Shown here piece by piece: positions 19,856-64,000 of a stretch of DNA of 64,000 nucleotides. The notes below the pieces were generated by a model. The model was not told where the DNA came from and searched no databases. It saw nothing but the letters and a program-made list of their open reading frames with translations. Numbering within the stretch: the first letter of the stretch is position 1; each line of letters opens with the position of its first letter. A program made the position numbers and the translations under genes. The stretch is from Chlorobiota bacterium (GTDB lineage: Bacteria > Bacteroidota > Bacteroidia > Bacteroidales > JAADGE01), in assembly GCA_013152535.1 (NCBI GenBank), contig JAADGE010000055.1:466-64465 (forward strand), written 5' to 3'.

Positions 19856-19923
19856 ATCAACAATATCCGGGTCTGTACCTTCTGAGTCATCAATAATACT
19901 CGGGTGAATTTCATCGGCAGGTT

Positions 19924-33889: not shown

Positions 33890-34618
33890 TCAAGTAGGAG
33901 ATATTCTGCGGGCATAGCGTTGTCCGGAAAAATAACCGGCACTTTTAACAGCATCAGCTTGTTTCGGCAGATTGTTTTCAGCTTCTGTTTTTGTTCTGCC
34001 CTTTTTGTCCCAACCTTTGTGGTCAACATAAACGTTTTGGTCAATTATTTTACGATTTACGGGATCGTAAATTCGCCAACCGGCATTTACTGCAATATCA
34101 ATTGAAGCAATGTATTCAGTATAGGTAACATCTTTATTATCTTTTTTTATTGTTTTTTGTTGTGAATCCAAATGTCTTGATGTGTTAGAATCAAAAGTTT
34201 CAAGTAAAATTAAGGCATCAGCAGAATAATTATTACAAATTTGTTTAACTTTTTGCCAATTTAAAGGAGCAGGAAATGTTGCCGCTCCGGTTCCTTTTAA
34301 ATTTAAACCGTCGGGAACGGTAACGTTGAATCTCGGAGAATTTTGTAATCCGCTTACCAAACCGCTGATTGCTTTTTCCGAAGCTTCGCGGTCAACAAAT
34401 ATTTCTTCTCCGCTGATAATTCCTTCTACAACATTGCGGAACTGATTACCGTTTCCTTTTGCCGGTAAACTTCTGTTTGCAACTGCTAAGGTTTTAATAT
34501 TTGCCGGCACAAAAATGTCAGCCGGTTTCAGCACTTTTACAGAAAGTGATTTTGTTTTACAGGAAAAGAACCCTATTCCTAAAATTATTACGAATAAAAT
34601 AATATAGTTTTGTTTCAT
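33890..34618 (-). CDS. lipoprotein, N-terminal 242 codons ending at an in-frame TGA
   Basis: Lipoprotein signal ...GIGFFSC. The ORF stops at TGA 33890-33892, but the same frame continues open (see the next feature). Confidence 0.7.
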   Translation of the reverse strand: MKQNYIILFVIILGIGFFSCKTKSLSVKVLKPADIFVPANIKTLAVANRSLPAKGNGNQFRNVVEGIISGEEIFVDREASEKAISGLVSGLQNSPRFNVTVPDGLNLKGTGAATFPAPLNWQKVKQICNNYSADALILLETFDSNTSRHLDSQQKTIKKDNKDVTYTEYIASIDIAVNAGWRIYDPVNRKIIDQNVYVDHKGWDKKGRTKTEAENNLPKQADAVKSAGYFSGQRYARRISPT

Positions 34619-48191: not shown

Positions 48192-49166
48192 ATGTTTACA
48201 ATTTCACAATTACAAGATATTATTTCCGAAAAATTTTCGACATTAAATTTTGATAAAAAACCGCAAAGACTATATGAACCGATTGAATATACTTTGGCTT
48301 CGGGAGGAAAACGAATTCGACCGGCATTGGTTTTGGCGGCATGCAATATGTTTTCCGAAAAAATTGAAACGGCAATACCGGCAGCTCTGGCTTTTGAAGT
48401 TTTTCATAATTTTACGCTGTTGCACGATGATATTATGGATAATTCGCCCGTTCGGCGAAATAAAGAAACCGTTCACAAGAAATGGAATAAAAACATCGCC
48501 ATACTTTCCGGCGATGCTATGATGATACAGGCATACGAATTTTTATCCGAGTTACCTTCCGAATTATTAAAAAAGATATTGCCTTTGTTTAATAAAACTG
48601 CTCTTGAAGTTTGTGAAGGGCAGCAATACGATATGGATTTTGAAAAATGCGATAATGTGTCGGAGGAAAAATATTTGAATATGATTAAATTAAAAACATC
48701 GGTATTGATTGCCGCAGCATTAAAAACCGGTGCGATAATAGGAGGTGCAAGTGAAAAAAACGCTGATTTACTTTATGATTTCGGTATTAATATCGGCTTG
48801 GCATTTCAAATTCAGGATGATTTATTGGATACTTATGCCGATACGTCTGTTTTCGGAAAAAAAATCGGAAATGATATTTTGACCGGAAAAAAAACTTTTC
48901 TTTTAATAAACGCCTTACAAAAATCCGGAATAAAGGAATTCGATAAGTTAAGAAATCTTATAAAAAATAAAAAAATTGAAGACGATGAAAAAATAAAATC
49001 AGTTATTCAAATTTATGACGATTTTAATATTAAAAGTTTAACCGAAAACAGAATAAAAAAATACCATAAAAAAGCACTGCAATCTTTAAATTTAGTATCT
49101 TGCGAAAATAATAAAAAACAGATTTCAGCAGAATTTGCCGATATGATAATGAACAGAAAAAAATAG
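48192..49166 (+). CDS. polyprenyl (geranylgeranyl/farnesyl-type) diphosphate synthase
   Basis: Asp-rich motifs LLHDDIMDNS and FQIQDDLLD. Confidence 0.85.
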   Translation: MFTISQLQDIISEKFSTLNFDKKPQRLYEPIEYTLASGGKRIRPALVLAACNMFSEKIETAIPAALAFEVFHNFTLLHDDIMDNSPVRRNKETVHKKWNKNIAILSGDAMMIQAYEFLSELPSELLKKILPLFNKTALEVCEGQQYDMDFEKCDNVSEEKYLNMIKLKTSVLIAAALKTGAIIGGASEKNADLLYDFGINIGLAFQIQDDLLDTYADTSVFGKKIGNDILTGKKTFLLINALQKSGIKEFDKLRNLIKNKKIEDDEKIKSVIQIYDDFNIKSLTENRIKKYHKKALQSLNLVSCENNKKQISAEFADMIMNRKK

Positions 49167-49174
49167 CAGTAAAA

Positions 49175-49747
49175 ATGGAGGAAAATAAAATTCATATTAA
49201 AAACATGGTATGCCCTCGCTGTGTTTCTGCCGTAAAACGAACACTTACCGAAATGCAAATTCCGTTTACGGAAGTAAAACTTGGTGAAGTTGTTTTAGCT
49301 GTTGACAAAAAAGAAATCGACAAAGAACTTTTTGACAAAAAACTTCACAAAATCGGATTCGAACTCATTGATGACGAAAAAAGTCATATCGTCAGCCAAA
49401 TTAAAACCGAAATTATTAAATACATACATTATTCGCCCGATTTAATACGAAAAGTGAATTTTTCGGATTATCTTGCCGACAAAATCGGACATAATTATTC
49501 TTACCTGAGCCGCCTGTTTTCTTCCGTTGAAGTTCAAACTATTGAAAAATACATTATTCAGCAAAAAATCGAAAAAGTTAAAGAACTTCTTATTTATGAA
49601 GAACTTTCGCTTTCGGAAATTTCTTATGATTTGGATTACAGCAGCGTGCAACATCTTTCGCGGCAATTTAAAAATGTTACCGGAATGACCCCGACGGAAT
49701 TTAAAAAATTGGAAAAGAAAAACCGAAGACCTTTAAACGAAATATAA
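49175..49747 (+). CDS. AraC-family transcriptional regulator with N-terminal HMA-like metal-binding domain
   Basis: The N-terminus IHIKNMVCPRCVSAVKRTL carries the MxCxxC motif of HMA folds. The C-terminal AraC HTH reads LSEISYDLDYSSVQHLSRQFKNVTGMTPTEFKK. Confidence 0.8.
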   Translation: MEENKIHIKNMVCPRCVSAVKRTLTEMQIPFTEVKLGEVVLAVDKKEIDKELFDKKLHKIGFELIDDEKSHIVSQIKTEIIKYIHYSPDLIRKVNFSDYLADKIGHNYSYLSRLFSSVEVQTIEKYIIQQKIEKVKELLIYEELSLSEISYDLDYSSVQHLSRQFKNVTGMTPTEFKKLEKKNRRPLNEI

Positions 49748-49837
49748 TTCTGAATTTTGTCCTTTCAATTTTCAATTTTCTGCAAAACTATATAAATCAT
49801 CTCCTTAATTGTATGAAGTTTTTATTTCATACCGGCG

Positions 49838-49845
49838 TAACTTTG
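49838..49845 (+). promoter_or_regulatory. -7 promoter box (TAACTTTG) upstream of copA
   Basis: Matches TAnnTTTG and lies 24 nt before the ATG at 49869. Confidence 0.5.
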
Positions 49846-49868
49846 CCGTAAATAAAAACAATACGATT

Positions 49869-51320
49869 ATGAAACATACATATAAAATAGACGGCATGAC
49901 ATGCGTCGGGTGTGAAACGGACGTTAAGAATGCTTTAAGTAACCTGAATGAAATAAACAAAGTTAAGGTTGACTTAAAAAAATCGGAAGTCGAAATTGAA
50001 ATGTCGCAACACATTTCGCTTGAGAAGTTGCAGGAAACTCTAATGAAAGCCGGTTTGCACTATACAATTCATTTGCCCGGCGATGAGCCCGTTCATAAAC
50101 ACGTTCATAAACAGCATATAAAACAAGTTGATTTTAACGGAAACGGTATTTTTTATTGCCCCATGCGATGCGAAGGCGATAAAACTTATGATAAATCCGG
50201 AGCTTGCCCCGTTTGCGGAATGGATTTAATCGAGCAAAAGCAGGTAAGTACAAAAGCAGAATATACCTGTCCTATGCACCCGGAAATTATTAAAGATGCT
50301 CCCGGTGCCTGCCCGAAATGCGGAATGGATTTAATTCCGAGAGAACCGGAAGAAAGTGAAGAAGATAAAACGTATTTAGGACTGTTAAAGAAAATGAAAA
50401 TTGCGGTAATTTTTACCCTCCCGATTTTTCTTATTGCAATGGCTGATATTTTGCAAAAAAATCCGTTGTTAGATTTGATGAACCAACAAAATTGGAATAT
50501 CGTACAGTTGATATTATCTCTGCCGGTTGTGTTTTATGCAACAAGAATGTTCTTCGAACGTGCTTGGAGGTCAATTGTTACTTGGAATTTGAATATGTTT
50601 ACACTTATAGGAATAGGTGCCGGTGTAGCTTTTATTTTCAGTATTTTTGCATTATTCTTTCCTGATATTTTCCCGGATCAGTTTAAAACTGACAGTGGAA
50701 CGGTATATGTTTATTTTGAGGCAGTTACAGTAATCCTCACACTTGTTCTTCTCGGTCAGTTATTAGAAGCCAAGGCACACAGCAGAACAAGCGGTGCCAT
50801 AAAAGAACTGATGAAGTTGGCACCTACGCAGGCAACGGTAATAGTTGACGGAGAAGAAAAAGTTATTTCAATACACGACATAAAACAAGGAGATTTAATA
50901 CGTGTAAAACCCGGAGAAAAAATTCCCGTTGACGGAAAAATTACCGAAGGCAGCACTCATATTGACGAAAGTATGATTACCGGAGAACCTGTTCCCGCAG
51001 ACAAAACAATAGGCGACAAAGTCAGTTCCGGAACCATTAACGGCAATAAATCATTTGTAATGATTGCTGAAAAAGTCGGGTCGGATACGTTGCTTTCGCA
51101 AATTATAAAAATGGTTAACGAAGCAAGTCGCTCGCGTGCTCCTATCCAAAAACTCGCCGATAAAATATCAAAATATTTTGTGCCGATTGTAGTCCTTATT
51201 GCCGCATCAACTTTTGCCGTATGGGCAATTTTCGGTCCCGAACCGGCTTATGTTTATGCTTTTGTAAACGCAGTTGCCGTTTTAATCATTGCTTTGCTTG
51301 CCCGTGTGCATTGGGATTAG
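49869..51320 (+). CDS. copA: copper-translocating P1B-type ATPase, N-terminal fragment (frameshifted)
   Basis: HMA domain (GMTCVGC), two Cys-rich CPxCGMDL metal-binding modules, TM helices and the TGE actuator motif (ITGEPVP). The frame is lost at 51290-51299, immediately before the expected CPC motif. Confidence 0.9.
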   Translation: MKHTYKIDGMTCVGCETDVKNALSNLNEINKVKVDLKKSEVEIEMSQHISLEKLQETLMKAGLHYTIHLPGDEPVHKHVHKQHIKQVDFNGNGIFYCPMRCEGDKTYDKSGACPVCGMDLIEQKQVSTKAEYTCPMHPEIIKDAPGACPKCGMDLIPREPEESEEDKTYLGLLKKMKIAVIFTLPIFLIAMADILQKNPLLDLMNQQNWNIVQLILSLPVVFYATRMFFERAWRSIVTWNLNMFTLIGIGAGVAFIFSIFALFFPDIFPDQFKTDSGTVYVYFEAVTVILTLVLLGQLLEAKAHSRTSGAIKELMKLAPTQATVIVDGEEKVISIHDIKQGDLIRVKPGEKIPVDGKITEGSTHIDESMITGEPVPADKTIGDKVSSGTINGNKSFVMIAEKVGSDTLLSQIIKMVNEASRSRAPIQKLADKISKYFVPIVVLIAASTFAVWAIFGPEPAYVYAFVNAVAVLIIALLARVHWD

Positions 51321-52372
51321 CAACACCTATGGCTGTGATGGTCGGTGTCGGAAAAGGTGCACAATCCGGAATTTTAATAAAAAATGCCGAAGCTATTGAA
51401 AAAATGAATAAAATTAATGTGCTTATTACCGATAAAACAGGGACACTTACCGAAGGAAAACCTTCGCTTGAAAAACTTATTGCTCTAAATCCCGCTGATG
51501 AAAAAAATTTGCTGATTAAAGCTGCATCTTTGAATACACAAAGCGAGCATCCCTTGGCGGAAGCAGTCGTAAAATATGCAAAAAATGAAAAACTTGATTT
51601 GAAAAATGTTGAGAATTTTGAAGCTGTTGCCGGAAAAGGTGTTACAGGAATCGCAGGTAATGAGAATATTGCTGTAGGAAATTCAAAATTAATGTCGGAA
51701 ATTAAAGCAGAAATCCCTAAAACACTTCAAACACAGGTCGAAACAGAACAAAAGCTCGGAAAAACTGTTTCTTACATTGCCGTAAACAACAAAGTTCTCG
51801 GATTTATTGTCATCAGCGACAAAATTAAAAAAACAAGTCAAAATGCCGTCAAAGAACTTATCGAACAAGGAGTTGAAGTAATCATGCTCACCGGAGATAA
51901 CAAAAATACGGCAAAAGCCGTTGCCGATGAATTAAATATAACAGGCTTTAAAGCAGAATGTTTGCCCGAAGATAAGCTTAATGAAATAAAACGTTTACAA
52001 AATGAAGGTAAAATTGTTGCAATGGCAGGCGACGGTATTAATGACGCTCCTGCATTGGCACAGTCCGACATCGGAATTGCCATGGGAACCGGAACTGACG
52101 TTGCCATTGAAAGCGGAGAAATAACACTTATGAAAGGCGATTTAAACGGTATTGTAAAAGCAAAAAAATTAAGTCATGCAATTATGAAAAATATCAAACA
52201 AAATTTATTCTTTGCTTTTGTTTATAACGTTCTTGGTGTTCCTGTTGCAGCCGGCGTATTATTTCCGGTATTCGGTTTGCTGCTCTCACCGATGATTGCA
52301 GCAGCAGCTATGAGTTTCAGTTCGGTTTCCGTAATCTCAAATTCATTACGATTGAGAAATTTAAAACTTTAA
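51221..52372 (+). CDS. copA: copper-translocating P1B-type ATPase, C-terminal fragment (the real coding part of this frame starts at about 51300)
   Basis: CPCALGLATP, DKTGTLT, MLTGDN and GDGINDAPAL motifs, in a frame shifted by +2 relative to the N-terminal fragment. Confidence 0.9.
   Translation: MGNFRSRTGLCLCFCKRSCRFNHCFACPCALGLATPMAVMVGVGKGAQSGILIKNAEAIEKMNKINVLITDKTGTLTEGKPSLEKLIALNPADEKNLLIKAASLNTQSEHPLAEAVVKYAKNEKLDLKNVENFEAVAGKGVTGIAGNENIAVGNSKLMSEIKAEIPKTLQTQVETEQKLGKTVSYIAVNNKVLGFIVISDKIKKTSQNAVKELIEQGVEVIMLTGDNKNTAKAVADELNITGFKAECLPEDKLNEIKRLQNEGKIVAMAGDGINDAPALAQSDIGIAMGTGTDVAIESGEITLMKGDLNGIVKAKKLSHAIMKNIKQNLFFAFVYNVLGVPVAAGVLFPVFGLLLSPMIAAAAMSFSSVSVISNSLRLRNLKL
51290..51299. repeat. 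perfect 5-bp tandem duplication (tgctt x2) inside copA
   Basis: Read directly: positions 51290-51294 are identical to 51295-51299. Confidence 0.95.
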
Positions 52373-52471
52373 AAAATAAATAAAGAAATGAGCCCTATTA
52401 TGTCTGACTAAATTTCATTTAAAAATGAAAATACAAATTAAAAATATTATGAAACATTTAAATTTAATATT

Positions 52472-52714
52472 ATGTGGATAAATCATTCTTGGATGGGCGG
52501 AATGTGGATTTTCCCCGTCATCATGGCAGTTATTGTGATACTTATTCTTGTTTTCTTCTCAAACGGAAGATATCGTTTCCCGTGGTTTTCCGGAAATCAG
52601 GATTTTTATCAAGACAATAAAAAAGACAGTCCGTCGGATATTCTTAAAAAAAGATATGTAAACGGCGAAATTAATAAAGAAGAATTTGACAGAATAAAAC
52701 ACGACATTGTCTGA
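52472..52714 (+). CDS. small membrane protein with C-terminal SHOCT domain
   Basis: One TM segment plus ILKKRYVNGEINKEEFDRIKHDI. Confidence 0.7.
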   Translation: MWINHSWMGGMWIFPVIMAVIVILILVFFSNGRYRFPWFSGNQDFYQDNKKDSPSDILKKRYVNGEINKEEFDRIKHDIV

Positions 52715-52856
52715 AAAAAATAAAATTGTAAACTTATCCCGTACAGAAAAAAGTAACGACTTTTACTGTGCGGGGTTTTAACTTAAAAAGTTAGATAACG
52801 GCAAAATTATACACAATTCAGTAAAAATTATATGAAAAATAGTTAGCTTTACTCTT

Positions 52857-52864
52857 TACTTTTG
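52857..52864 (+). promoter_or_regulatory. -7 promoter box (TACTTTTG)
   Basis: Lies 25 nt before the ATG at 52889. Confidence 0.45.
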
Positions 52865-52888
52865 TCTTTAATAAAATCTATCCCGTAA

Positions 52889-53263
52889 ATGTTTAAAAAA
52901 ACAGTTTATTATATAATGATTTTTCTGCTGCTGTTGTCTGTAATAGGCATAACAGTTAATAAACATTATTCGGGGACTAAATTATTTTCTGTTTCTGTTT
53001 TTACGGAAGCCGAAAGTTGTTGCACCGGACATTGTAATTGTTGCAACAATACTTCTGAAACGTACAAACTGACGGACAGTTTCTTTAAAACAGATTTTGA
53101 ATCAAATACAAAGCCGGTAATTTTTAATTCTTTCGGCTATATTTTAAGTACAAATAATAAAATTCCATGTTTGTCCGAAAGTTGTGTTTTTTCGAACACA
53201 TATAAAAATACTGAATATATTGTAAATTCTTCACCTGCATATTTGCAGAACTTCAGATTGTAA
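52889..53263 (+). CDS. small Cys-rich membrane protein, paralog 1 (resembles the HYC_CC_PP-type proteins found next to Bacteroidota metal-efflux genes)
   Basis: N-terminal TM, then VNKHYSGTKLFSVSVFTEAESCCTGHCNCCNN. Paralogous to 56776-57231. Confidence 0.55.
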   Translation: MFKKTVYYIMIFLLLLSVIGITVNKHYSGTKLFSVSVFTEAESCCTGHCNCCNNTSETYKLTDSFFKTDFESNTKPVIFNSFGYILSTNNKIPCLSESCVFSNTYKNTEYIVNSSPAYLQNFRL

Positions 53264-53375
53264 AAAAACTACCGGGGATGTGCAGATATTTATTCCGTTT
53301 TTATGAATAAAATTCTCGGACATTCTTTCAAACCGTAACTGTTAATACCGCTAAGCTATTATTAAAAGTACATTT

Positions 53376-53383
53376 TATATTTG
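53376..53383 (+). promoter_or_regulatory. -7 promoter box (TATATTTG, within the shared 14-mer TTATATTTGTAATA)
   Basis: The same 14-mer recurs at 56166-56179 upstream of the HMA gene. Confidence 0.45.
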
Positions 53384-53465
53384 TAATAGTTCGGTATTAA
53401 AAAGCTAATATTTTCTGTTTTTCCGATTAGCGGAAAAATAAATACATAAATTATATCATAATAAA

Positions 53466-53984
53466 ATGAAAACTTTAAAGATTTTAACAATATCAATTGT
53501 TGTAATATTGGTTACACTTAATGTAGCCTGTAACAAAAAGAATAATATTAAAGATCTCAGTTCTGAAATATTAGGTACCTACACCGGTACACTTAACAGT
53601 AATAATCAAAAAAGTATTACCGATGCCGTTGCTGATGTTACCGAAAGCGGTGATAATCAAATAGAAATTCATTGCTATGGTAATGAGATTGATACAACAT
53701 TTGTGCAACGTTTGTTTGATGACGGAGACACAATTCAAATGTGTTCAACAGGAGACGACTTTTATAACGAATACGGGCATCAAATGACAAATCAAAGTGA
53801 GCACCACGATATGATGACAGATACAAACGGATTATCTTGGATGCATCACATGGATGAAGAACATAATGAGAATGATAAACATTTCGGTTTCTTTAAACCT
53901 TCTGAGGGAACATTCAGCTATACATTTAATTTAATGTCCGGCGGAGTTTCATATACGGCGGTTTTTAACGGAACTAAAAAATAA
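53466..53984 (+). CDS. probable lipoprotein with a His/Met/Asp-rich segment (candidate periplasmic metal binder)
   Basis: Signal sequence ending LNVAC. Contains HQMTNQSEHHDMMTDTNGLSWMHHMDEEHNENDKH. Confidence 0.55.
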   Translation: MKTLKILTISIVVILVTLNVACNKKNNIKDLSSEILGTYTGTLNSNNQKSITDAVADVTESGDNQIEIHCYGNEIDTTFVQRLFDDGDTIQMCSTGDDFYNEYGHQMTNQSEHHDMMTDTNGLSWMHHMDEEHNENDKHFGFFKPSEGTFSYTFNLMSGGVSYTAVFNGTKK

Positions 53985-54082
53985 AATATTTATGAAATTA
54001 AGATGATGCCCGAGCAGATTTATTTAAGTAATTTTTCAGGCATCTTTTTATAAAAAAATTTAATAATTTAAAATATATAAAA

Positions 54083-54505
54083 ATGAAAAAGTCAGCTTAT
54101 TTATTTATGTTAATAGTGTTTGTTGTTGCCGGAACAGCAATGATTTCACCAAAAAAAATGTTAAATCTGAGAACAAACCAAGCAGGTTGGGTTGCTCCTA
54201 AAAGTGCAGATAATTTAGAAAATCCGTATAAAGGAAACCTTGAGGCAATAAAAGCAGGAAAAAAATTATATAAACAAAATTGTGCAATTTGTCACGGCAA
54301 CAAGGGAGTTGGTGATGGTATTGCAGGTATGAGTCTGAAACCTAAACCTACAAACCTCACAACAGCTACATTTAATAATCAAACCGACGGTGCAATATTT
54401 TGGAAATTGACAGAAGGGAAATCGCCTATGCCTTCATATAAAACAACCTTTTCCGAGAAACAACGATGGCAAGTAGTTAATTATTTAAAATCAATTAAAA
54501 AATGA
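54083..54505 (+). CDS. class I c-type cytochrome (monohaem)
   Basis: Signal/anchor sequence, a CAICH haem motif and a distal MPSY Met ligand context. Confidence 0.8.
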   Translation: MKKSAYLFMLIVFVVAGTAMISPKKMLNLRTNQAGWVAPKSADNLENPYKGNLEAIKAGKKLYKQNCAICHGNKGVGDGIAGMSLKPKPTNLTTATFNNQTDGAIFWKLTEGKSPMPSYKTTFSEKQRWQVVNYLKSIKK

Positions 54506-55713
54506 TTAAAATGAAAATTATATCAATTTTATCTATTATATTATTGTTCTTTTCTGTCAATATTTATTCTCAAAACTATGATAATCAGAAGTTTGAAAAA
54601 ATGAATAATGATATTGACAGCCTGAAAGAATTAATTAAACCCGGAAAAAGTAAATTTCTTTTAAGAGGATATTCTCATTCGGGAATTGTAATTACTGACG
54701 AAAATTCATCTTTTGTCGGCGGTTCTTTTAATCCCATTTTTATTTACAAACAATCCGACAGGTTAATGTTTGAAAGTGAACTGGAATTTGAACTTGAAGA
54801 CAGGAATCTGAATATAGGTCTTGAATATGCAAATATTTCATATCTGCTTACCAAGTCGTTAACTGTACGTTTCGGAAAAATCCTTTTGCCTTTTGGTATT
54901 TTTGTTGACCGAATGCATCCGGCATGGGTTGACAAGTTTTCGTCAAAACCTTTAGGTGTAGGTCACGGCGGGATTTTACCCGGTTCTGATATCGGTATAG
55001 AATTAAGAGGTGCATCTTATTTAGGATCTTCTAAAATAAACTATTCATTTTATGTAATGAACGGTCCGCGTTTAAATGAAGGCGATGAAGAACCGGATGA
55101 AGCCGGACAATTACATTATGACAATTTCCCGGATAATAACAAAAATAAGGCAATTGGCGGAAGATTGGGTTTTTTACCCCTGTCAAATTCATCATTGGAA
55201 ATCGGATTTTCGGGAATGTACGGAAAAGTCGGGTCCGGCAACTCTCAATATGCTGATGTTGCATCAAAATTATATGCAATTGATATCTCTTATATTCAAA
55301 ATTTACCGTTTATGCAAAGTGTTTTAGATGTTAAGGCTCAATACAGCGGAGTAATTACCGATAATGCAAATTACCGAAATTATGACAATCTTGTAAATCC
55401 TGATGCCGTGTACACCTTTACAAATCAAAATTCAACCACTTTTGCTCAAATTGCCCTTAGACCGGCAATGGTAAATAATAAAATATTGCGAAATTTTGAA
55501 ATAGCAGGCAGATATTCTGATTTGATTACTCCCGAAGGGTCTAAATGGGCCTCAAATCTTAACCAATGGGAATTTAGTTTGAACTATTGGCTGAATTGGC
55601 GAACGGTTTTTAAACTTTCCTATCGAACAACGGAAGGAGAAACAGAACATACTGAGGGTGCTGAAAGTCCTTTGGGTAAAGCATTTTTCTTTCACTGGGC
55701 AATCGGGTTTTAA
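54502..55713 (+). CDS. outer-membrane beta-barrel porin-like protein
   Basis: Signal peptide, alternating strands, and a C-terminal ...FFFHWAIGF. Its start overlaps the cytochrome c stop (ATGA). Confidence 0.65.
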   Translation: MIKMKIISILSIILLFFSVNIYSQNYDNQKFEKMNNDIDSLKELIKPGKSKFLLRGYSHSGIVITDENSSFVGGSFNPIFIYKQSDRLMFESELEFELEDRNLNIGLEYANISYLLTKSLTVRFGKILLPFGIFVDRMHPAWVDKFSSKPLGVGHGGILPGSDIGIELRGASYLGSSKINYSFYVMNGPRLNEGDEEPDEAGQLHYDNFPDNNKNKAIGGRLGFLPLSNSSLEIGFSGMYGKVGSGNSQYADVASKLYAIDISYIQNLPFMQSVLDVKAQYSGVITDNANYRNYDNLVNPDAVYTFTNQNSTTFAQIALRPAMVNNKILRNFEIAGRYSDLITPEGSKWASNLNQWEFSLNYWLNWRTVFKLSYRTTEGETEHTEGAESPLGKAFFFHWAIGF

Positions 55714-55739
55714 TATTTAATCACACAAATTATAACAGA

Positions 55740-56021
55740 ATGAAAAATAAAAGAAAATCACTAATATTCAGCAGCTTTGGGGTACTAATCTTAGTTATGT
55801 TAATATCTCTGCTGAGTAATTGCAATGTAAGTAATGAAATAAAAGCTAAAAGCGGAGCCCAATTATGGGGTGAGAATTGCTTGAGATGCCACAACAATCC
55901 GTCGCCGGAAACATTCAGCGATGTGGAGTGGGATGTAGCCGTAATGCATATGCGTATTCGTGCAAACTTAACAGATGAAGAAGCAAAAAAAATAGCAAAA
56001 TTTCTTAAAACAGCAAATTAA
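55740..56021 (+). CDS. small c-type cytochrome-like protein (single CxxCH)
   Basis: TM/signal sequence plus WGENCLRCHNNPSP...WDVAVMHM. Confidence 0.6.
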   Translation: MKNKRKSLIFSSFGVLILVMLISLLSNCNVSNEIKAKSGAQLWGENCLRCHNNPSPETFSDVEWDVAVMHMRIRANLTDEEAKKIAKFLKTAN

Positions 56022-56040
56022 TTGAGATCATTTTATATTT

Positions 56041-56091
56041 TGTAAACAGGATTATTTGCCGGTAAATTTTTTATTCGGCAACCTGTTTACA
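56041..56091 (+). terminator. long composite hairpin after the cytochrome/porin operon
   Basis: Outer stem tgtaaacagg/cctgtttaca enclosing an inner stem ttgccg/cggcaa. There is no clear T-run. Confidence 0.45.
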
Positions 56092-56166
56092 TCAGTTTCA
56101 AAAATATTTGCAGAATAATATAAAAGATATACCGAATTATATAAAAGCAAAAGACAAAAAGGTCTT

Positions 56167-56174
56167 TATATTTG
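56167..56174 (+). promoter_or_regulatory. -7 promoter box (TATATTTG)
   Basis: Lies 31 nt before the ATG at 56205. Confidence 0.5.
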
Positions 56175-56204
56175 TAATATTTATAAACGAAAATTAAAAA
56201 AATA

Positions 56205-56642
56205 ATGAAAAAAATAATCTTCTTAACAGTTGCCCTATTGTTTGCATTCAGTTTTTCAAACATATCGGCTCAAAGTGAAAAATCATGCTGTAATAAATCA
56301 ATGAATATGTCGTCTTGCGATAAAAACATGAAAAATTCATCAAACGACAAAAGCAAAACAAGTATGAATTCTGAAAAAGGCGAAAAAGAAACCGTTTTTA
56401 AAGTTTCCGGAAAATGCGAAATGTGCGAAGCTCGTATAGAAAAAGCTGCTCTCGGAGTGAAAGGCGTTAAAACAGCCGAGTGGGATAAGACTACCAAATT
56501 GTTGAAAGTTTCTTTTGACGGAAATACAAGCAAAAAAGATATCGAAAAAGCAATTGCCGATGTCGGTCACGATACTCCGGATTTTAAAGCAAAAGATGCT
56601 GTGTACAATGCACTGCCCGGATGCTGCAAATACGAACGATAG
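56205..56642 (+). CDS. secreted heavy-metal-associated (HMA) domain protein with Cys/Met-rich N-terminal region
   Basis: Signal peptide; CCNKSMNMSSCDKNMKNSS; HMA core FKVSGKCEMCEARIEKA; C-terminal PGCCKYER. Confidence 0.8.
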   Translation: MKKIIFLTVALLFAFSFSNISAQSEKSCCNKSMNMSSCDKNMKNSSNDKSKTSMNSEKGEKETVFKVSGKCEMCEARIEKAALGVKGVKTAEWDKTTKLLKVSFDGNTSKKDIEKAIADVGHDTPDFKAKDAVYNALPGCCKYER

Positions 56643-56667
56643 ATTTTTATAATACCCTAAAAACATC

Positions 56668-56706
56668 AAAGGGCTTGTTAAATGTTATGTTTTTCGAGCC
56701 CTTTTT
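56668..56706 (+). terminator. rho-independent terminator after the HMA gene
   Basis: Stem aaagggcttg / cgagcccttt with a 17-nt loop, followed by a T-run. Confidence 0.55.
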
Positions 56707-56762
56707 ACAAAATCCTGCACATTTTAATTAAAATTATATAACGAGTATAATAACAGTTGCCG

Positions 56763-56770
56763 TATCTTTG
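56763..56770 (+). promoter_or_regulatory. -7 promoter box (TATCTTTG) only 5 nt from the ATG at 56776 (near-leaderless)
   Basis: Matches TAnnTTTG. Confidence 0.4.
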
Positions 56771-56775
56771 TCCCA

Positions 56776-57231
56776 ATGTTAAAAACAATCGCACATATCA
56801 CTGTTTCAATTTTAATCCTTATCCTTACAATAGGAATAAGTATTAATAAACACTACTCAAACGGGAAATTATTTTCATGGTCCGTTTTGGGCGATGCCGA
56901 AACTTGTGATGCCGGCATAAACGAAGTTTGCGAAATGCAAAATATGCCGAATAATTGCGAGACACACAAAATGCAAGTTACTCCGGAAAATACGAACACT
57001 TCGTGTTCTTGCGAAGACACTTCCGAATATCTGCATTTTGATACCGATTATACGGTTCCCGAAAAAATAAACGCAGATAATGTTTTTCAACAAGAAATAA
57101 CGCTATTTATAAACAGTACTGTTGCTGTTCAAACAAATTTTTTTCGTACTCAAAATCAAACTTTCGGAAGCGGTAAACAAAAACTGAAAATTCCGGATTT
57201 TACTTCCTTATATCAAGTATTCATTTGTTAA
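56776..57231 (+). CDS. small Cys-rich membrane protein, paralog 2
   Basis: INKHYSNGKLFSWSVLGDAETCDAG aligns with VNKHYSGTKLFSVSVFTEAESCCTG of 52889-53263. Confidence 0.55.
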   Translation: MLKTIAHITVSILILILTIGISINKHYSNGKLFSWSVLGDAETCDAGINEVCEMQNMPNNCETHKMQVTPENTNTSCSCEDTSEYLHFDTDYTVPEKINADNVFQQEITLFINSTVAVQTNFFRTQNQTFGSGKQKLKIPDFTSLYQVFIC

Positions 57232-57405
57232 TGTAATTACTTTATTGTAAGTTGTTTTTATTCCCTTTTTTGTACAAGCATCATAAGTTGTACCTCGAAA
57301 ATTACAATTTACACTTCAATTTTTATTTCTTGTTCAATTCAGAAATAAATAAATAAAACATTGTATATTAGCACAATATATTATTCACTTATAAAACTCT
57401 TTATC

Positions 57406-57789
57406 ATGAACTATTACACAAACAAAACTGTCGATACCGACATAGAAAAAGCAACCGAATTAATAAAAGCAGAACTTCAAAAAGAAGGTTTCGGAATAGT
57501 AACACAATTTGACGTAAATAAAGCACTGAAAGAAAAACTGGATTTGGATTTTCGCCCATACAGAATTTTGGGTGCATGCAATCCGCCTTTTGCTCTTAAA
57601 TCAATTAATGCAGAAGATAAAATCGGAACATTATTACCCTGTAATGTTATGTTGCAGGAAGAAAACGGTAAAACCGAAATAGCAATTATCAATCCTGTTG
57701 CAATGATGCAATCGGTTGAAAACGATGAAATGCTCAAAATTGCAGAGGAAATTGCAGAGAAATTGAACAAGGCATTATCAAAAGTCTAA
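57406..57789 (+). CDS. DUF302 domain protein
   Basis: EGFGIVTQFDVNKALKEKLDLDFRPYRILGACNP is a typical DUF302 core. The start is taken at internal ATG 57406 (MNYYTNK). Confidence 0.75.
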   Translation: MNYYTNKTVDTDIEKATELIKAELQKEGFGIVTQFDVNKALKEKLDLDFRPYRILGACNPPFALKSINAEDKIGTLLPCNVMLQEENGKTEIAIINPVAMMQSVENDEMLKIAEEIAEKLNKALSKV

Positions 57790-57828
57790 TGCCTCAACCT
57801 AATATCTAACATCTCAAATATATCTAAC

Positions 57829-60800
57829 ATGTTAAATAAAATAATAAAATTTTTCCTCGAAAATAAGCTTGTAACATTTATGTTTCTTGCCATATTTATC
57901 GCTTGGGGAATTTCTTCGTCGCCGTTTGGGTGGGATACTTTTTTACCGTCCGACCCGGTACCGGTTGATGCCATCCCCGATATAGGAGAAAATCAACAAA
58001 TCGTTTATACGGAATGGTCGGGACGTTCACCGCGTGATATCGAAGATCAAATTTCATATCCGCTTACAACGGCATTACTCGGTATTCCGGGTGTAAAAAC
58101 AATAAGAAGTAATTCTATTTTCGGTTTATCAAGTATCTATTTAATTTTTGAAGACGGTGTCGATTTTTATTGGAGTCGTACAAGAATACTTGAGAAACTG
58201 AATTCTTTACCGCCGGGTACTTTACCCGATAAAGTCAAACCGGCTCTCGGACCTGATGCCACGGCACTCGGTCAAATATATTGGTACACACTTGAAGGCA
58301 GAGACAAAAACGGCAAACCTGCGGGCGGTTGGGATCCGCAGGAGCTCAGGACTTTGCAGGATTTTTATGTTCGTTACGGACTGACTTCCGCAAAGGGGGT
58401 TTCCGAAGTTGCTTCAATCGGAGGATTTGTGAAAGAGTACCAAATTGACATTGACCCGAATGCAATGAAAGCATACGGTGTAAATGTGTCGCAAATTATT
58501 AATGCCGTTAAGAAAAGTAATCTCGACATCGGAGCAAGAACAATTGAATTTAATAAGGTTGAATACCTTGTCAGAGCTTTGGGATACATCAAAAATCTGA
58601 GTGATTTGGAGGAAAGTGTTGTAGCTGTTCATAAAAATATACCCGTAAGATTAAAAGATGTGGCAAAAATCTCTTTCGGTCCGGCAACTCGAAGAGGAGG
58701 GCTTGATAAAGGCGGTTCGGAAGCTGTAGGCGGCGTTGTTGTTGCTCGTTACGGTGCGAATCCGATGGAAGTTATCAAAAATTTGAAAGAAAAAATCAAA
58801 GAAATTTCGCCCGGACTGCCGAGCAAAACTCTTGCAGACGGTACGGTTTCAAAAGTTACGATTGTACCATTTTACGACCGAACCGGTTTAATAAAAGAGA
58901 CACTCGGAACACTTGAAGAAGCACTTACACTTGAAATTCTTATCAGTATTATAGTGATATTAATTTTAGTAATGAATTTACGGGCATCGTTCTTAATCTC
59001 AAGTTTATTGCCGATTGGTGTTTTGATGACATTTATTGTGATGCGGCGTTTCGGTGTTGATGCAAATATTGTTGCATTATCAGGTATTGCAATAGCAATA
59101 GGTGTAATGGTTGATGTGGGAATAGTCTTTACCGAAAACATCATCCGGCATCTCGAAATGGCAAAGAATATCGGAGCAAAAGGTAAGCAATTAGTTAAAG
59201 TAATTTACGAAGGAACAACAGAAGTTGCCGGAGCCGTTATTACGGCACTTTCAACAACCATTGTCAGTTTCTTACCGGTATTTGCTATGCAGGCAGCCGA
59301 AGGAAAATTATTTCGCCCTTTGGCATTCACAAAAACGTTTGCAATGATTTCGGCATTAGTTATCGGTTTAATGTTTATTCCTTTGTTGGCAAACCTTGTT
59401 TTTTCAATCAAACCGTCCGACAAATTAAGAAAGTATATTTCAAACGGAATTTTGATTGTTACCGGTATTGTTTTGGCAATTCTTGCGAAATCAGTGATAG
59501 CTCTTGCATTAGTCATCATTGGCTTAAACAATATATTCTCATACAAATGGTCTGAGAAAAGGAAAAAATATACAAATTACATTAATATCTTTATTACATT
59601 AAGTATAGTAATCTTTTTCTTAACACGCGAGTGGATGCCGCTCGGAGCACAAAACAGCCTGACTTTCAATTACATATTTGTAATGTCTTTGATTGGAGTT
59701 GTATTGGGAACTTTATTAACAGTCGTTCATTATTATAAACAAATTTTGAAATGGAGTTTAGAAAATAAAAAGAAATTTCTTACAATTCCTGTAATTGTTA
59801 TTTTATTCGGAATATTATCTTGGCTCGGAGTCAATAAAATGTTCGGTTTTATGCCCGATTTTGTCAAGAATACAAAAACTTGGAATTCTTTTGCGGAAAC
59901 ATTTCCGGGCACGGGAAAAGAATTTATGCCGAGTTTAGATGAAGGGTCATTTTTGCTTATGCCGACAACAATGCCGCATTCCGGCGTTCAGGAAAATCTG
60001 GATGTTATCAGGTTGCTTGATAAAAGAGTAAACAGCATTCCCGAAGTTGAAAATGTCGTGGGAAAATGGGGAAGGGCAAATTCTGCTCTCGATCCGGCAC
60101 CGACTTCAATGTTTGAAAATATCATAAATTATAAAACAGAATATATTGTTGACGAAGACGGATACAAAAGACGGTTTAAAGTTAATTCGGACGGAGCATA
60201 CGTTTTAAAAGACGGGTCAACTTATAATCCGAAAAAAGAAGATTTCAGAGTAATTGAAAAATCAGAACTCATTCCGGATGACAGCGGCAAATATTTCCGT
60301 CAATGGCGACCTGAAATAAAATCAACAGATGATATTTGGAAAGAAATTGTAAGTAAATCAAATATTCCAGGTTTAACTTCTGCACCGAAATTGCAACCCA
60401 TTCAAACACGTCTTGTAATGTTGCAAACCGGAATGCGAGCACCTATGGGAATAAAAGTTTTCGGTCCCGACCTTGAAACAATTGAGAAAACGGCTTATGA
60501 AATAGAACATCAACTTAAATTCGTAAAAGGTGTAAAAGCATCGTCTGTTTTTGCCGACAGGGTTGTAGGTAAACCTTATATTGAACTGGAAATCAAGCGT
60601 AAAGCAATAGCACGTTACGGACTTACTATAAAAGATTTACAAACAACTTTGGCAACAGCAATCGGAGGAATGCCTCTTACTTCCACAGTTGAGGGCAGGG
60701 AACGCTTCCCTGTGCGTGTACGTTATGCTCGCGAACTCAGAGATAATCCGGATGAGTTAAAGAAAATTCTGATACCGACAAAAAGCGGTGTTCAAATTCC

Positions 60801-61644
60801 ATTGGGAGAACTTGTTGATGTAAAATACAAAAGAGGTCCGCAACTTATTAAAAGTGAAAATACATTTCTTGTCGGTTATGTAATTTTCGATAAAAAAGAC
60901 GGTTTTGCAGAAGTTGATGTTGTTGAAGATGCACAAAAATATCTTAAAGAAAAAATTAAAAGCGGAGAACTGATTATTCCGGCAGGTGTAAATTATAAAT
61001 TTACAGGAAATTATGAAAATCAAGTACGTGCAAGTAAACGCTTGCTTCTTGTTGTTCCGATTTCTTTAATCTTAATTTTCTTGATTCTATATTTTCAATT
61101 CGGGAAAGTACAACCGTCATTAATGGTCTTTTCAGGAATATTTGTTGCTTTTGCCGGTGGTTTTATTATGATATGGCTTTACGGTCAATCATGGTTTTTG
61201 AATTTCTCTGTCGGCGGAATGAATATGCGAGATATGTTTAATATGCATACGATTAACTTAAGCGTTGCTGTTTGGGTAGGGTTTATTGCTCTTTTCGGTA
61301 TTGCAACCGATGACGGAGTAATTGTAGGAACTTATTTGAAGCAAGTTTTTGAACGTAACAAACCTACAACGGTTGCAGAAGTAAGAAATTCTGTAATTGA
61401 AGCGGGTTCAAAACGTGTTCGTCCGGCAATGATGACTGCTGCAACAGCAATAATTGCTCTAATTCCGGTACTTACATCAACAGGTAAAGGTTCTGATATT
61501 ATGGTTCCTATGGCAATTCCCTCTTTCGGAGGAATGATAATTCAGGTAATGACCATGTTTGTTGTTCCGGTGCTCTACAGTATGTGGCAAGAAGGAAAAC
61601 TTAAAAAAAATAAAATACATAACACTGATTCGAATGGTTTTTAA
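57829..61644 (+). CDS. heavy-metal efflux RND permease (CusA/CzcA family), 1271 aa
   Basis: N-terminus IIKFFLENKLVTFMFL and RND hallmarks throughout (…GENQQIVYTEW…, …ATDDGVIV…). Longer than the roughly 1040-aa canonical members. Confidence 0.9.
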   Translation: MLNKIIKFFLENKLVTFMFLAIFIAWGISSSPFGWDTFLPSDPVPVDAIPDIGENQQIVYTEWSGRSPRDIEDQISYPLTTALLGIPGVKTIRSNSIFGLSSIYLIFEDGVDFYWSRTRILEKLNSLPPGTLPDKVKPALGPDATALGQIYWYTLEGRDKNGKPAGGWDPQELRTLQDFYVRYGLTSAKGVSEVASIGGFVKEYQIDIDPNAMKAYGVNVSQIINAVKKSNLDIGARTIEFNKVEYLVRALGYIKNLSDLEESVVAVHKNIPVRLKDVAKISFGPATRRGGLDKGGSEAVGGVVVARYGANPMEVIKNLKEKIKEISPGLPSKTLADGTVSKVTIVPFYDRTGLIKETLGTLEEALTLEILISIIVILILVMNLRASFLISSLLPIGVLMTFIVMRRFGVDANIVALSGIAIAIGVMVDVGIVFTENIIRHLEMAKNIGAKGKQLVKVIYEGTTEVAGAVITALSTTIVSFLPVFAMQAAEGKLFRPLAFTKTFAMISALVIGLMFIPLLANLVFSIKPSDKLRKYISNGILIVTGIVLAILAKSVIALALVIIGLNNIFSYKWSEKRKKYTNYINIFITLSIVIFFLTREWMPLGAQNSLTFNYIFVMSLIGVVLGTLLTVVHYYKQILKWSLENKKKFLTIPVIVILFGILSWLGVNKMFGFMPDFVKNTKTWNSFAETFPGTGKEFMPSLDEGSFLLMPTTMPHSGVQENLDVIRLLDKRVNSIPEVENVVGKWGRANSALDPAPTSMFENIINYKTEYIVDEDGYKRRFKVNSDGAYVLKDGSTYNPKKEDFRVIEKSELIPDDSGKYFRQWRPEIKSTDDIWKEIVSKSNIPGLTSAPKLQPIQTRLVMLQTGMRAPMGIKVFGPDLETIEKTAYEIEHQLKFVKGVKASSVFADRVVGKPYIELEIKRKAIARYGLTIKDLQTTLATAIGGMPLTSTVEGRERFPVRVRYARELRDNPDELKKILIPTKSGVQIPLGELVDVKYKRGPQLIKSENTFLVGYVIFDKKDGFAEVDVVEDAQKYLKEKIKSGELIIPAGVNYKFTGNYENQVRASKRLLLVVPISLILIFLILYFQFGKVQPSLMVFSGIFVAFAGGFIMIWLYGQSWFLNFSVGGMNMRDMFNMHTINLSVAVWVGFIALFGIATDDGVIVGTYLKQVFERNKPTTVAEVRNSVIEAGSKRVRPAMMTAATAIIALIPVLTSTGKGSDIMVPMAIPSFGGMIIQVMTMFVVPVLYSMWQEGKLKKNKIHNTDSNGF

Positions 61645-61692
61645 AAACATATATCAATCATTATCATCAGTCTGTAATTAAAATATTTGAAT

Positions 61693-62913
61693 ATGAAAAA
61701 TATATTATTAATAATTATGTTGTTTTTAATAAAGATAAGTTCGGCACAAAACACATTGCCCGATTATCTTAAAACAGCAGCGGAAAATAATCCGGAACTT
61801 GCATCTAAATTCAGCGAATATAATGCGAGTTTACAAATTATTCCGCAAGTAAAGGCATTGCCCGATCCTAAAATTGCATTCGGGTATTTTATAATGCCCG
61901 TTGAAACACGAACAGGACCGCAGCAGGCAAAAATTTCGGCAAGTCAGTCTTTTCCGTGGTTCGGAAGTTTGAAAGCAAAGGAAAATACTGCAATTCAAGC
62001 TGCAAAAGCAAAATATGAAATATTTAATCAGACAAAAACAACTTTATTTCTGAATGTCAGAACTTCCTACTATACATTGTATTATATTCAAAAATCAATA
62101 CAAATTACGGGAGAAAATCTGGAAATTCTCAGAACATTTAAAAAGTTGGCAGCCGTAAAAGTCGAAACCGGAAAAGCATCGGCAACCGATGAATTGCGGA
62201 TAGATATGGAAATTGCTGAACTCGAAAATAAATTGGCTTTATTAAAAGACAGTTTTTATGCCGAGCAAGTCAAATTTAATAAACTTTTGAATGTTAAAAA
62301 TGAAAGTCCGGTAGTAATTTCTGAAATCGAAGATCAAAGTTTTGTATTCGACAAACAAGCAGTTCTTGACAGCATTAAAAAAAATAATCACAATTTAAAA
62401 GTGCTTGATTTTAAACTTATGTCTTTGGAATATCTGAAAACATCCGCACAAAAAGACGGGATGCCTAAGTTTTCGGTAGGTGTTGATTATACGCTTATCG
62501 GACCGGGAGAAAATAATCTTGCAGGAACCGATGCTTTTTTAGCACCGAAAATAGGGATTTCAATTCCGCTGAATCGAAAAAAATACAAAGCTAAAGTTTC
62601 GGAAGTTCAATACAAACAAGATGCCGTAAAGATGCAAAAAGAAAATACCGAAAATTTGCTCGAAACAGCTTCGGAAAATGTTTATAAAGATTTCAAGGAT
62701 GCGGAAAGACGTACTAAACTGTATGTATATCAAACAGATATTGCAAAAAAAACAATCCGTTTGTTAGAAAACGAATATGCTGTCAGTTCCGTAGGATTTG
62801 AGGAAGTTTTGAGAATGGAACGCAAGGTTTTAAACTATAATCTTGCTCTTGAAAAAGCAAAATCAGACAGAGAAAAAGCCAAATCTAAAATTTATTACTT
62901 AACAGGAAAATAA
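61693..62913 (+). CDS. TolC-family outer-membrane efflux protein
   Basis: Signal peptide and two OEP-type repeats. The ORF-track start at 61687 is a TTG, and an ATG lies at 61693. Confidence 0.8.
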   Translation: MKNILLIIMLFLIKISSAQNTLPDYLKTAAENNPELASKFSEYNASLQIIPQVKALPDPKIAFGYFIMPVETRTGPQQAKISASQSFPWFGSLKAKENTAIQAAKAKYEIFNQTKTTLFLNVRTSYYTLYYIQKSIQITGENLEILRTFKKLAAVKVETGKASATDELRIDMEIAELENKLALLKDSFYAEQVKFNKLLNVKNESPVVISEIEDQSFVFDKQAVLDSIKKNNHNLKVLDFKLMSLEYLKTSAQKDGMPKFSVGVDYTLIGPGENNLAGTDAFLAPKIGISIPLNRKKYKAKVSEVQYKQDAVKMQKENTENLLETASENVYKDFKDAERRTKLYVYQTDIAKKTIRLLENEYAVSSVGFEEVLRMERKVLNYNLALEKAKSDREKAKSKIYYLTGK

Positions 62914-62963
62914 AACATTATACAGTCATCTGATGACTCTATTTTATATTAAAATAAGAAAAT

Positions 62964-64000
62964 ATGAAAAATATAATTCAAAAAATTAAAGAAAAGATCA
63001 AATACATACTTCCGAGTATCGTAATAGGATTATTTTTCGGTTGGTTGTTCTTTGCCGGAGGGTCAAGTTCTGATAACGGACAAAATCAAAAAACCGAAGC
63101 ACAAGTTGAAGAACATTGGACATGCTCCATGCATCCGCAGATTGACGAGCCCGGACCGGGACAATGCCCGATTTGCGGCATGGATTTAATTCCGAAAAAA
63201 ACTGTAAGTTCCGATGATGAGGCGGTTGGTCCCGATGAAATTTTAATGACACAATCAGCTATAAAACTTGCAGATATTCAAGTATATATAGTAAAAAAGG
63301 GTATTCCGGAGAAAAAAGTTTATTTACTCGGAAAAGCACAAGCTGATGAACGCAAAATTGCAGAACTTACGGCAAGGTTTTCCGGAAGAATTGAGAAATT
63401 GTATATTAACTTCACCGGACAAAACGTGAAAAGAGGACAGAGATTAGCCACCGTTTATTCGCCGGAACTTGTTACGGCACAGAAAGAATTAATGGAAGCA
63501 ATTTCTTTTAAAAAAACAAATCCGAGTTTTTACACGGCAGCCAGAAATAAACTTAAACTTTGGGATTTAAGTGAAAATCAAATTAATGCTATCGAAAAAA
63601 ACGGAAAACCGAAATTATATTTCGATATTTTGTCTCCTATTTCAGGAACTGTAACCAAACGACACGTTGCTTTGGGTGACTATATTAAAGAAGGTAACGC
63701 TTTATTTCAAGTTGTGGATTTAACAAAAATTTGGGTAATGTTTGATGCTTATGAGAGTGATTTGCCTTGGCTGCAAAAAGGTAATAAAGTTGATTTTGTT
63801 TTTCAGGCAATTCCCGGTAAAAAATTTACTGAAAAAATTACATTTATTGACCCGTTTATCGACCCGCAAACACGGGTTGCAAAAGTGCGCGTTGAAATAA
63901 AAAATCCGAAACTCGAAATAAAACCCGAAATGTTCGCCGACGGAATTGTACAATCTGAAATTTCCGAAGGAACCGATGATATATTGATACCAAAATCCGC
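62964..64000 (+). CDS. efflux RND periplasmic adaptor (CusB/MFP-like) with an N-terminal CPxCGMDL metal-binding module; 3' end outside the window
   Basis: Hand translation gives MKNIIQKIKEKIKYILPSIVIGLFFGWLFF...HWTCSMHPQIDEPGPGQCPICGMDLIP...ARFSGRIEKLYINFTGQNVKRGQRLATVYSPELVTAQKE.... The frame is open to the window end, which is why it is absent from the ORF track. Confidence 0.85.
   Translation, partial: MKNIIQKIKEKIKYILPSIVIGLFFGWLFFAGGSSSDNGQNQKTEAQVEEHWTCSMHPQIDEPGPGQCPICGMDLIPKKTVSSDDEAVGPDEILMTQSAIKLADIQVYIVKKGIPEKKVYLLGKAQADERKIAELTARFSGRIEKLYINFTGQNVKRGQRLATVYSPELVTAQKELMEAISFKKTNPSFYTAARNKLKLWDLSENQINAIEKNGKPKLYFDILSPISGTVTKRHVALGDYIKEGNALFQVVDLTKIWVMFDAYESDLPWLQKGNKVDFVFQAIPGKKFTEKITFIDPFIDPQTRVAKVRVEIKNPKLEIKPEMFADGIVQSEISEGTDDILIPKS

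Follow-up and report, generated by a model that had tools for sequence, protein, structure and literature searches.

The copA gene in the window, the whole 64,000-nucleotide stretch of DNA that was analysed, carries a 5-bp tandem duplication that changes its reading frame immediately before the CPC motif. A genuine and very recent mutation in the sequenced population is the most likely reading of this lesion, to which we assign on sequence evidence a probability of roughly 0.55. The disrupted gene is composed as follows.

49869 to 51293, plus strand: 5' part of copA, codons 1-475, with one HMA domain (GMTCVGC), two HMBD domains, the N-terminal transmembrane (TM) helices, the A-domain (TGEP) and the first half of the CPC helix, ending in AVAVLIIA (Pfam HMA, HMBD twice and E1-E2_ATPase; tblastn identity of 100 % in frame +3 up to 51293).
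51289 to 51299, plus strand: the lesion, a 5-bp tandem duplication and thus a +5 insertion in comparison to every relative (from the sequence and the comparison with relatives).
51299 to 52372, plus strand: 3' part of copA in the +2/-1 frame, with CPC, DKTGT, SEHP, TGDN, GDGINDAP, the TM7 motif N-x6-YN-x4-P, the TM8 motif M-xx-SS-x5-N and the stop codon (motifs; TIGR01511 positions 221-542).
51318 to 51320, plus strand: premature TAG that closes the frameshifted N-terminal fragment, preceded by the junk tail LLARVHWD (from the reading frame).

The pentamer TGCTT is present twice (51290-51294 and 51295-51299) within a maximal period-5 run from 51289 to 51299 (TTGCT TTGCT T), and the region 51280-51320 reads ...GTT TTA ATC ATT GCT TTG CTT GCC CGT GTG CAT TGG GAT TAG... 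The duplication can be aligned in several equivalent ways, in one of which the extra TTGCT (51294-51298) is located exactly between the codon of Ala475 (51291-51293) and the codon of the first CPC cysteine (51299-51301). The upstream frame starts with the ATG at 49869 and has the tail ...AVAVLIIALLARVHWD in front of the TAG at 51318-51320. The +2 frame, equivalently the -1 frame, is open from 51164, reads from 51299 on CPCALGLATPMAVMVGVGKG followed by DKTGT, TGDN and GDGINDAP, and has its stop at 52372. No uninterrupted ORF covers all domains of the pump, with the frame change at 51289-51299 and the TAG at 51318-51320, and deletion of 5 nt yields a single ORF of 832 aa. A sequence-only reading of this DNA had described the duplication, the frame change and the site immediately before CPC; all of this was correct, with the coordinates confirmed and 13 relatives lacking the 5 nt. 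Exact 5-bp tandem repeats were observed 94 times in the window, at an expectation of about 85 in a first-order Markov simulation. Such a repeat by itself is unremarkable; its significance rests on the comparison with relatives.

Exactly these 5 nt were absent from all 13 related DNA loci, ten of them in an alignment of relatives drawn from a species-representative genome collection (A1) and three (L040, L041 and L042) added via cluster look-ups. The ten aligned relatives read ATT/ATC GCY TGY CCN TGT at the site, encoding I-A-C-P-C. L040 (JAGGYL010000260.1), the closest partial relative, whose incomplete CopA falls into the same 90 % cluster, reads GTTGCCGTTTTAATCATTGCTTGCCCGTG, which is the window sequence minus one TGCTT with identical flanks. 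Intact copA orthologues of 823-840 aa are present in L041 (JBPKSO010000092.1, 823 aa), collinear with the window over the segment that begins with the aconitase-family gene and includes the RND system, and in L042 (JBPLTK010000089.1, an ORF of 840 aa with a protein identity of 94-95 %). An alignment of 120 protein homologues gave no sign of a break at the site among the matches listed. Because all 13 relatives have the single copy and the flanks in L040 are identical, the insertion is, judged by these sequences, derived and unique to this sequence. In scans of genomes and metagenome contigs for the same site from the same species, no hit exceeded about 90 % amino acid identity, and a 220-aa query centred on CPC retrieved no fragment above 82 % identity. 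A Logan contig of 1,059 bp (L039, SRR33956863) is 99.15 % identical to the window and ends 8 nt before the copA ATG.

The repaired product presents TGEP at residue 371, DKTGT at 520 and GDGINDAP at 719. The transmembrane metal-site signature of P1B-1 ATPases is complete with CPC at 476, NLFFAFVYNVLGVP at 777 and MSFSSVSVISN at 813, and all three elements are encoded in the downstream frame. With the NCBIfam model for copper-translocating P-type ATPases (TIGR01511) the repaired product scored 579.6 bits at a cut-off of 397, and the fragments alone remained under this cut-off (N-terminal fragment 220.1 bits, C-terminal fragment 347.1 bits). Their matches to the profile, 2-222 and 221-542, meet at the break. 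The best match in the PDB was CopA of Legionella pneumophila (3RFU, E=1.9e-236, residues 130-830 aligned) with an identical VLIIACPCALGLATPM segment. By its sequence the gene belongs to the P1B-1 Cu(I) ATPases and is, as deposited, disrupted. Removal of one copy had been expected to give a single 832-aa CopA, and motifs, TIGR01511 and the match to 3RFU bear this out. The frame change and the premature TAG also support the earlier claim of a non-functional pump: copA as deposited is predicted to be unable to encode a working protein.

A division of the pump over two functional polypeptides, or a new function of the 483-aa N-terminal fragment as a membrane-anchored copper-binding protein, was considered. 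The N-terminal fragment keeps three metal-binding domains, and the downstream frame offers an in-frame ATG at 51221. However, the break lies inside the CPC helix and leaves a complete helix in neither piece, the product from ATG-51221 would begin with 26 out-of-frame residues, a split arrangement was found in no relative, and the lesion appears too young for an adaptation. We regard such a split pump as extremely improbable.

The genes around copA were those of a metal cluster.

49175 to 49747, plus strand: intact gene immediately in front of copA for an AraC-family regulator whose N-terminus has a metal-binding region with CxxC (MVCPRC) (Pfam HTH_18 and HTH_AraC; exact protein NOZ35478.1).
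52472 to 57789, plus strand: accessory genes for a SHOCT protein, a Cys-rich 124-aa protein, a His/Met-rich 172-aa protein, a cytochrome c, a 400-aa unknown protein, an HMA-domain protein, a 151-aa unknown protein and a DUF302 protein (Pfam; NOZ35479-35486).
57829 to 64000, plus strand: CusA-like RND pump (57829-61644), outer-membrane factor (61687-62913) and CusB-like adaptor with HMBD from about 62960, the latter cut by the window end; all intact (Pfam ACR_tran and OEP).

The order of AraC regulator and copA is also found in L040, L041 and L002. In comparison to L041, L042 and L002, the accessory genes in 52472 to 57789 had no frame breaks or stops, and the AraC-type regulator and the CusCBA-like system were likewise intact. 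The CusB-like adaptor is represented by BSH_CusB and HMBD in the gene tables of L041 and L042, and tblastn located the HMBD match at 63087-63233. A second P-type ATPase that could compensate for CopA was not found within the 64-kb window. The sequence-only reading had named CopA the main Cu(I) exporter, a role that is putative on the evidence of these 64 kb.

The window originates from a public MAG and is part of a 113,923-bp contig, also available in JGI/IMG, with the proteins NOZ35446 to NOZ35488 and the locus tags GXO80_09260 to GXO80_09345. As the sequence is the consensus of a MAG, its copA allele may represent a minority variant or be erroneous, a point that speaks against a real mutation. 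For copA no NCBI protein exists: the accessions of its neighbours run from the AraC regulator (NOZ35478) to the SHOCT protein (NOZ35479, GXO80_09310), and the 483-aa fragment was called only by JGI/IMG (P0243). From the DUF6340 gene (GXO80_09260, NOZ35470) to GXO80_09310 (NOZ35479) there are ten steps in the locus tags and nine in the accessions, that is one locus without a protein. With one locus-tag slot lacking a protein accession, the numbering implies that copA already counts as a pseudogene in GenBank.

The reading frames on both sides of the break were well preserved. In comparison to its nearest relatives, L042 and L004, the repaired copA had an overall dN/dS of 0.06; the 5' side of the break gave 0.058 and 0.059, and the 3' side 0.066 and 0.063. 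All of these values fall in the range of 0.05-0.11 seen for pairs of intact copA genes. In columns conserved to at least 95 %, the repaired protein departs at 2 of 355 positions (A/V and L/V), fewer than most of the eleven intact relatives, which have 1-13 departures. Given the low dN/dS before and after the break and the 2 deviating columns among 355 conserved ones, copA has to all appearance in these alignments been kept by strong purifying selection almost to the present day, and the lesion must be of very recent date or else not genuine.

For a genuine mutation, the following course of events is proposed. A non-programmed 5-bp tandem duplication would have arisen very recently in copA of an uncultured population of the Bacteroidota/FCB group. 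Short tandem duplications are a classic product of replication slippage, and we infer this origin here, with a microhomology of only 1 nt. The frame would shift between Ala475 and the CPC of the metal-binding TM helix, and translation from the normal start would stop 8 junk codons past the shift. The resulting 483-aa fragment would be devoid of CPC, the phosphorylation site DKTGT, the ATP-binding domain and the last two helices, hence the allele would be null and the gene a newly formed pseudogene. The export of cytoplasmic Cu(I) by CopA would be lost, and the adjacent CusCBA-type system and the accessory genes would stay intact.

The lesion in copA is not alone. At least five disruptive lesions, that of copA included, are spread over four of the roughly 50 genes in the window; the other genes concerned are the following.

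2 to 1618, plus strand: M1 aminopeptidase with a T9SS sorting domain, cut by the window start, with two frame changes (relatives have 646-650 aa in one frame).
15920 to 26529, minus strand: giant T9SS protein, split into 2201 and 1311 aa, with the break exactly at an 11-bp tandem duplication at 19942-19965.
33572 to 34618, minus strand: DUF6340 gene with a TGG>TGA nonsense change at 33890-33892 (a 348-aa relative, P0279, 90 % identical overall, has Trp243).

In the M1 peptidase, the first frame change at about 285/286, where relatives read YKAASNGLL, fits a 2-nt deletion and is probably one; the second, at 671-674 (TTCG[CG]GCGAC), is a duplication of CG right after HELAHQWF. One ORF is restored when both changes are undone, and NCBI calls only a C-terminal piece of 317 aa. 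The presence of two lesions in this gene was considered as a sign of real pseudogenes and rejected, as by a rough hand estimate the probability of some same-gene pair among five random hits is about 0.4. Removal of one 11-bp copy from the giant T9SS gene yields an ORF of 3,532 aa, and a related MAG (L044) has a gene of 3,506 aa at this place. In homologues of about 2,900-3,700 aa, the part that corresponds to the beginning of the 1,311-aa ORF lies at residues of roughly 2,100-2,600. By chance, the window should contain 0.07 exact tandem repeats of 11 bp. The class of lesion found in copA recurs in this 11-bp duplication (19942-19965) and in the CG duplication (671-674), an observation on the side of a real mutation. 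In the DUF6340 gene, 105 codons past the stop are still in frame and conserved. An alternative genetic code with TGA as Trp was rejected for this gene, all other genes giving long ORFs under table 11.

In related MAGs, the homologous stretches of twelve loci contained a single lesion in about 31,000 aligned residues, a TAG in place of the Ser codon of the ASRSRAPIQ motif in copA of L002. The lesion density in the window, five in 64 kb, is about 8 times that of the related MAGs over homologous regions. The coincidence that the lesion of L002 is also located in copA is not significant, because about 22 % of the aligned sequence is copA. If the lesions in the window are real, this independent nonsense mutation in an orthologous copA would be a hint that a loss of Cu(I) efflux is tolerated or favoured. 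The cluster of lesions points to a genome-wide or assembly-wide burden, and since at least five lesions were found in four genes of the window, the break in copA is not to be seen as a locus-specific device.

Such a burden may be technical. The cells may carry an intact copA, and the extra TGCTT together with the other small indels would originate from sequencing, read processing, assembly or polishing, or represent a rare variant; we consider this a serious alternative, if less probable than a mutation. The source is a MAG, and with five lesions in four genes over 64 kb in contrast to one in some 31,000 aligned residues elsewhere, a lower-quality assembly would look alike. Secondary decay was observed in none of the broken genes examined for it, copA, the DUF6340 gene (90 % to P0279) and the M1 peptidase gene (85-90 % per segment), and the complete lack of it fits an artefact as well as a very recent mutation. 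Technical errors, however, would have to account for lesions that are not homopolymer errors and are of mixed type (duplications, a probable deletion and a G>A nonsense change), on a contig whose 113.9 kb suggest a decent coverage. Exact duplications of 5 bp and 11 bp are atypical of Illumina substitution errors. If the contig stems from a de Bruijn assembly of short reads, the reads must, as for such assemblers in general, contain the k-mers of a novel duplication junction. Because of these two points the real mutation is favoured.

If the lesions are real, they may have a common background. A hydrothermal-type Bacteroidota population may then carry an unusually high load of very young disruptions, mostly tandem duplications of 2, 5 and 11 bp, as a slippage-prone or repair-deficient lineage or at the onset of genome decay, with the loss of Cu(I) efflux tolerated or favoured. 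We propose this as an unlikely, speculative extension of a genuine mutation in copA.

The sequence-only reading had further suggested that copA may be switchable by loss of the duplication. A reversible on/off switch, a phase variation of the contingency type, would require gains and losses of the duplication frequent enough to be of use, by which the population could toggle copper export. A precise reversion of short tandem duplications by slippage is possible in principle, the ancestral site has with TTGCTTGC a small 4-nt repeat, and the otherwise pristine gene would make a revertant fully functional. Positive evidence for a switch was not found: the site has only 2.2 copies of the 5-mer, two copies and not a repeat tract, with no homopolymer of six or more, and the copy number does not vary among the 13 relatives, all of which have the single-copy state. 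Of 120 listed copA fragments, none began or ended within about 20 residues of CPC, in a search biased toward sequences spanning the site. Similar lesions in the unrelated genes for the giant T9SS protein, the M1 peptidase and DUF6340 argue for an undirected mutational or technical burden. A switch at this site is thus very improbable.

A programmed recoding by -1 ribosomal frameshifting or transcriptional slippage would restore the full-length pump from the interrupted gene. The downstream frame is indeed -1 relative to the upstream frame and open from 51164, and copA of Escherichia coli uses a -1 frameshift, located after the first metal-binding domain, for the synthesis of the 70-aa chaperone CopA(Z) (PMC5009743). 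That event yields the chaperone instead of mending an interrupted CPC helix, and a -1 slip in the window gene would add 2 residues immediately before CPC. From 51164 to 51320, neither a slippery heptamer X_XXY_YYZ, classical or relaxed, nor a homopolymer of six or more was present. For a stimulatory structure, the downstream 101 nt had a minimum free energy of -21.5 kcal/mol compared to a shuffle mean of -23.5 (z=+0.62), and 149 of 200 shuffles folded at least as well. The shift is also absent from all 13 related DNA loci. Programmed frameshifting and transcriptional slippage were rejected for lack of a slippery site and a downstream structure, and we attach next to no probability to recoding.

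The biological weight of the disrupted copA is small: family and type of mutation are well understood, and the gene is part of a draft MAG and apparently flagged in the public annotation. Metabolic and resistance inferences from this MAG should not count the window copA as functional. With five lesions in 64 kb, the assembly deserves a read-level quality check before claims are made on copper sensitivity, T9SS cargo or pseudogenisation. Should the lesions be real, the spectrum rich in tandem duplications and the parallel knock-out of copA in L002 would be a modestly interesting population-genetic observation.

In comparison to known systems, the gene resembles L. pneumophila CopA (P1B-1, 3RFU) in all P1B-1 motifs, in the N-terminal HMA domain and in the identical VLIIACPCALGLATPM. 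It differs in the +5 frameshift, by which the pump is covered by no single ORF, and in two extra HMBD domains of the CPMH type between HMA and membrane part, a feature shared with its Bacteroidota relatives. With the contingency loci based on simple sequence repeats (SSR), copA has in common a repeat-associated frameshift that is reversible in principle, but it has two copies of a 5-mer instead of a tract and shows no copy-number variation among relatives. E. coli copA belongs to the same gene family and also changes frame inside copA (PMC5009743); its site, however, is a conserved recoding signal, whereas in the window DNA was inserted into the CPC helix, with neither slippery site nor structure nor conservation. 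The gene also resembles ordinary bacterial pseudogenes that arose by short tandem duplications or slippage and are annotated as frameshifted by the NCBI pipeline (PGAP): a single derived out-of-frame indel in a conserved gene, intact orthologues in relatives and no GenBank protein. From these, nothing substantive differs, and the local density of lesions in the window MAG is the sole oddity. The break in copA makes an ordinary frameshift pseudogene or is an assembly lesion in a draft MAG, and is apparently so treated by GenBank.

Besides copA, the Cu(I) ATPase gene, further genes of the window were disrupted:

2-1618, plus strand, M1 aminopeptidase gene with T9SS sorting domain, two frameshifts (near 285/286 and at 671-674)
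15920-26529, minus strand, gene of a giant T9SS-sorted protein, broken into ORFs of 2201 and 1311 aa
33572-34618, minus strand, DUF6340 gene, in-frame TGA at 33890-33892

The break between the two ORFs of the giant gene coincided exactly with an 11-bp tandem duplication at 19942-19965, in which the unit AATACAAGTAC occurs twice on the coding strand. Removal of one copy restored a single ORF of 3,532 aa, and the related MAG L044 carries a gene of 3,506 aa at this position. In the M1 aminopeptidase, the frameshift at 671-674 was a CG duplication directly after the zinc motif HELAHQWF, while the one near 285/286, where relatives read YKAASNGLL, is probably a 2-nt deletion; the NCBI annotation covers only a C-terminal piece of 317 aa. 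The TGA of the DUF6340 gene falls at Trp243 of a 348-aa relative with 90 % identity, and the 105 codons past the stop are still in frame and conserved. The NCBI entry is the truncated product of 242 aa, a "hypothetical protein".

An independent copA lesion was present in the orthologue on JAJRUH010000128.1 (L002, MAG Dive96_bin10.164): a TAG at positions 2682-2684 of L002 replaces a serine codon (TCG in the window) of the conserved motif ASRSRAPIQ. This was the sole lesion found across ~31,000 aligned residues of relatives. Since about 22 % of these residues belong to copA, the coincidence of copA lesions in the window and in L002 is not significant. An exact 12-bp in-frame tandem repeat was observed in copA of the window (50090-50113, plus strand; CGTTCATAAACA twice), which encodes the His-rich linker VHKHVHKQ. 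The linker is equally long in relatives, e.g., VHKHEHKQ in the related protein P0244, thus the repeat is an old feature rather than a new duplication.

One gene start was affected by the mechanical ORF call:

57361-57789, plus strand, DUF302 gene, ORF beginning at a TTG too far upstream

Its relatives encode 127 aa and contain stops in the region matching the additional N-terminal codons, and the actual start probably lies near 57406.

The source MAG bears the label "Chlorobi bacterium". This phylum label looks doubtful, because most of its nearest relatives go under Bacteroidales or Bacteroidetes, and T9SS cargo (Por_Secre_tail) is abundant in the window. The same species is present in the independent run SRR33956863, as a contig of 1,059 bp (L039) shared 99.15 % identity with window positions 48803-49861.

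Compared with the related loci L041 and L042, both with intact copA, the metal cluster (49800-64000) was a mosaic. L042 shared 88 % identity with the window over 49.8-56.0 kb and 82 % over 56.1-64 kb; L041 shared 82 % over 43.4-56.0 kb and 90 % over 57.8-64 kb, with far stronger divergence at 56.0-57.8 kb than in the flanking stretches. These shifts in identity along the cluster suggest recombination between lineages.
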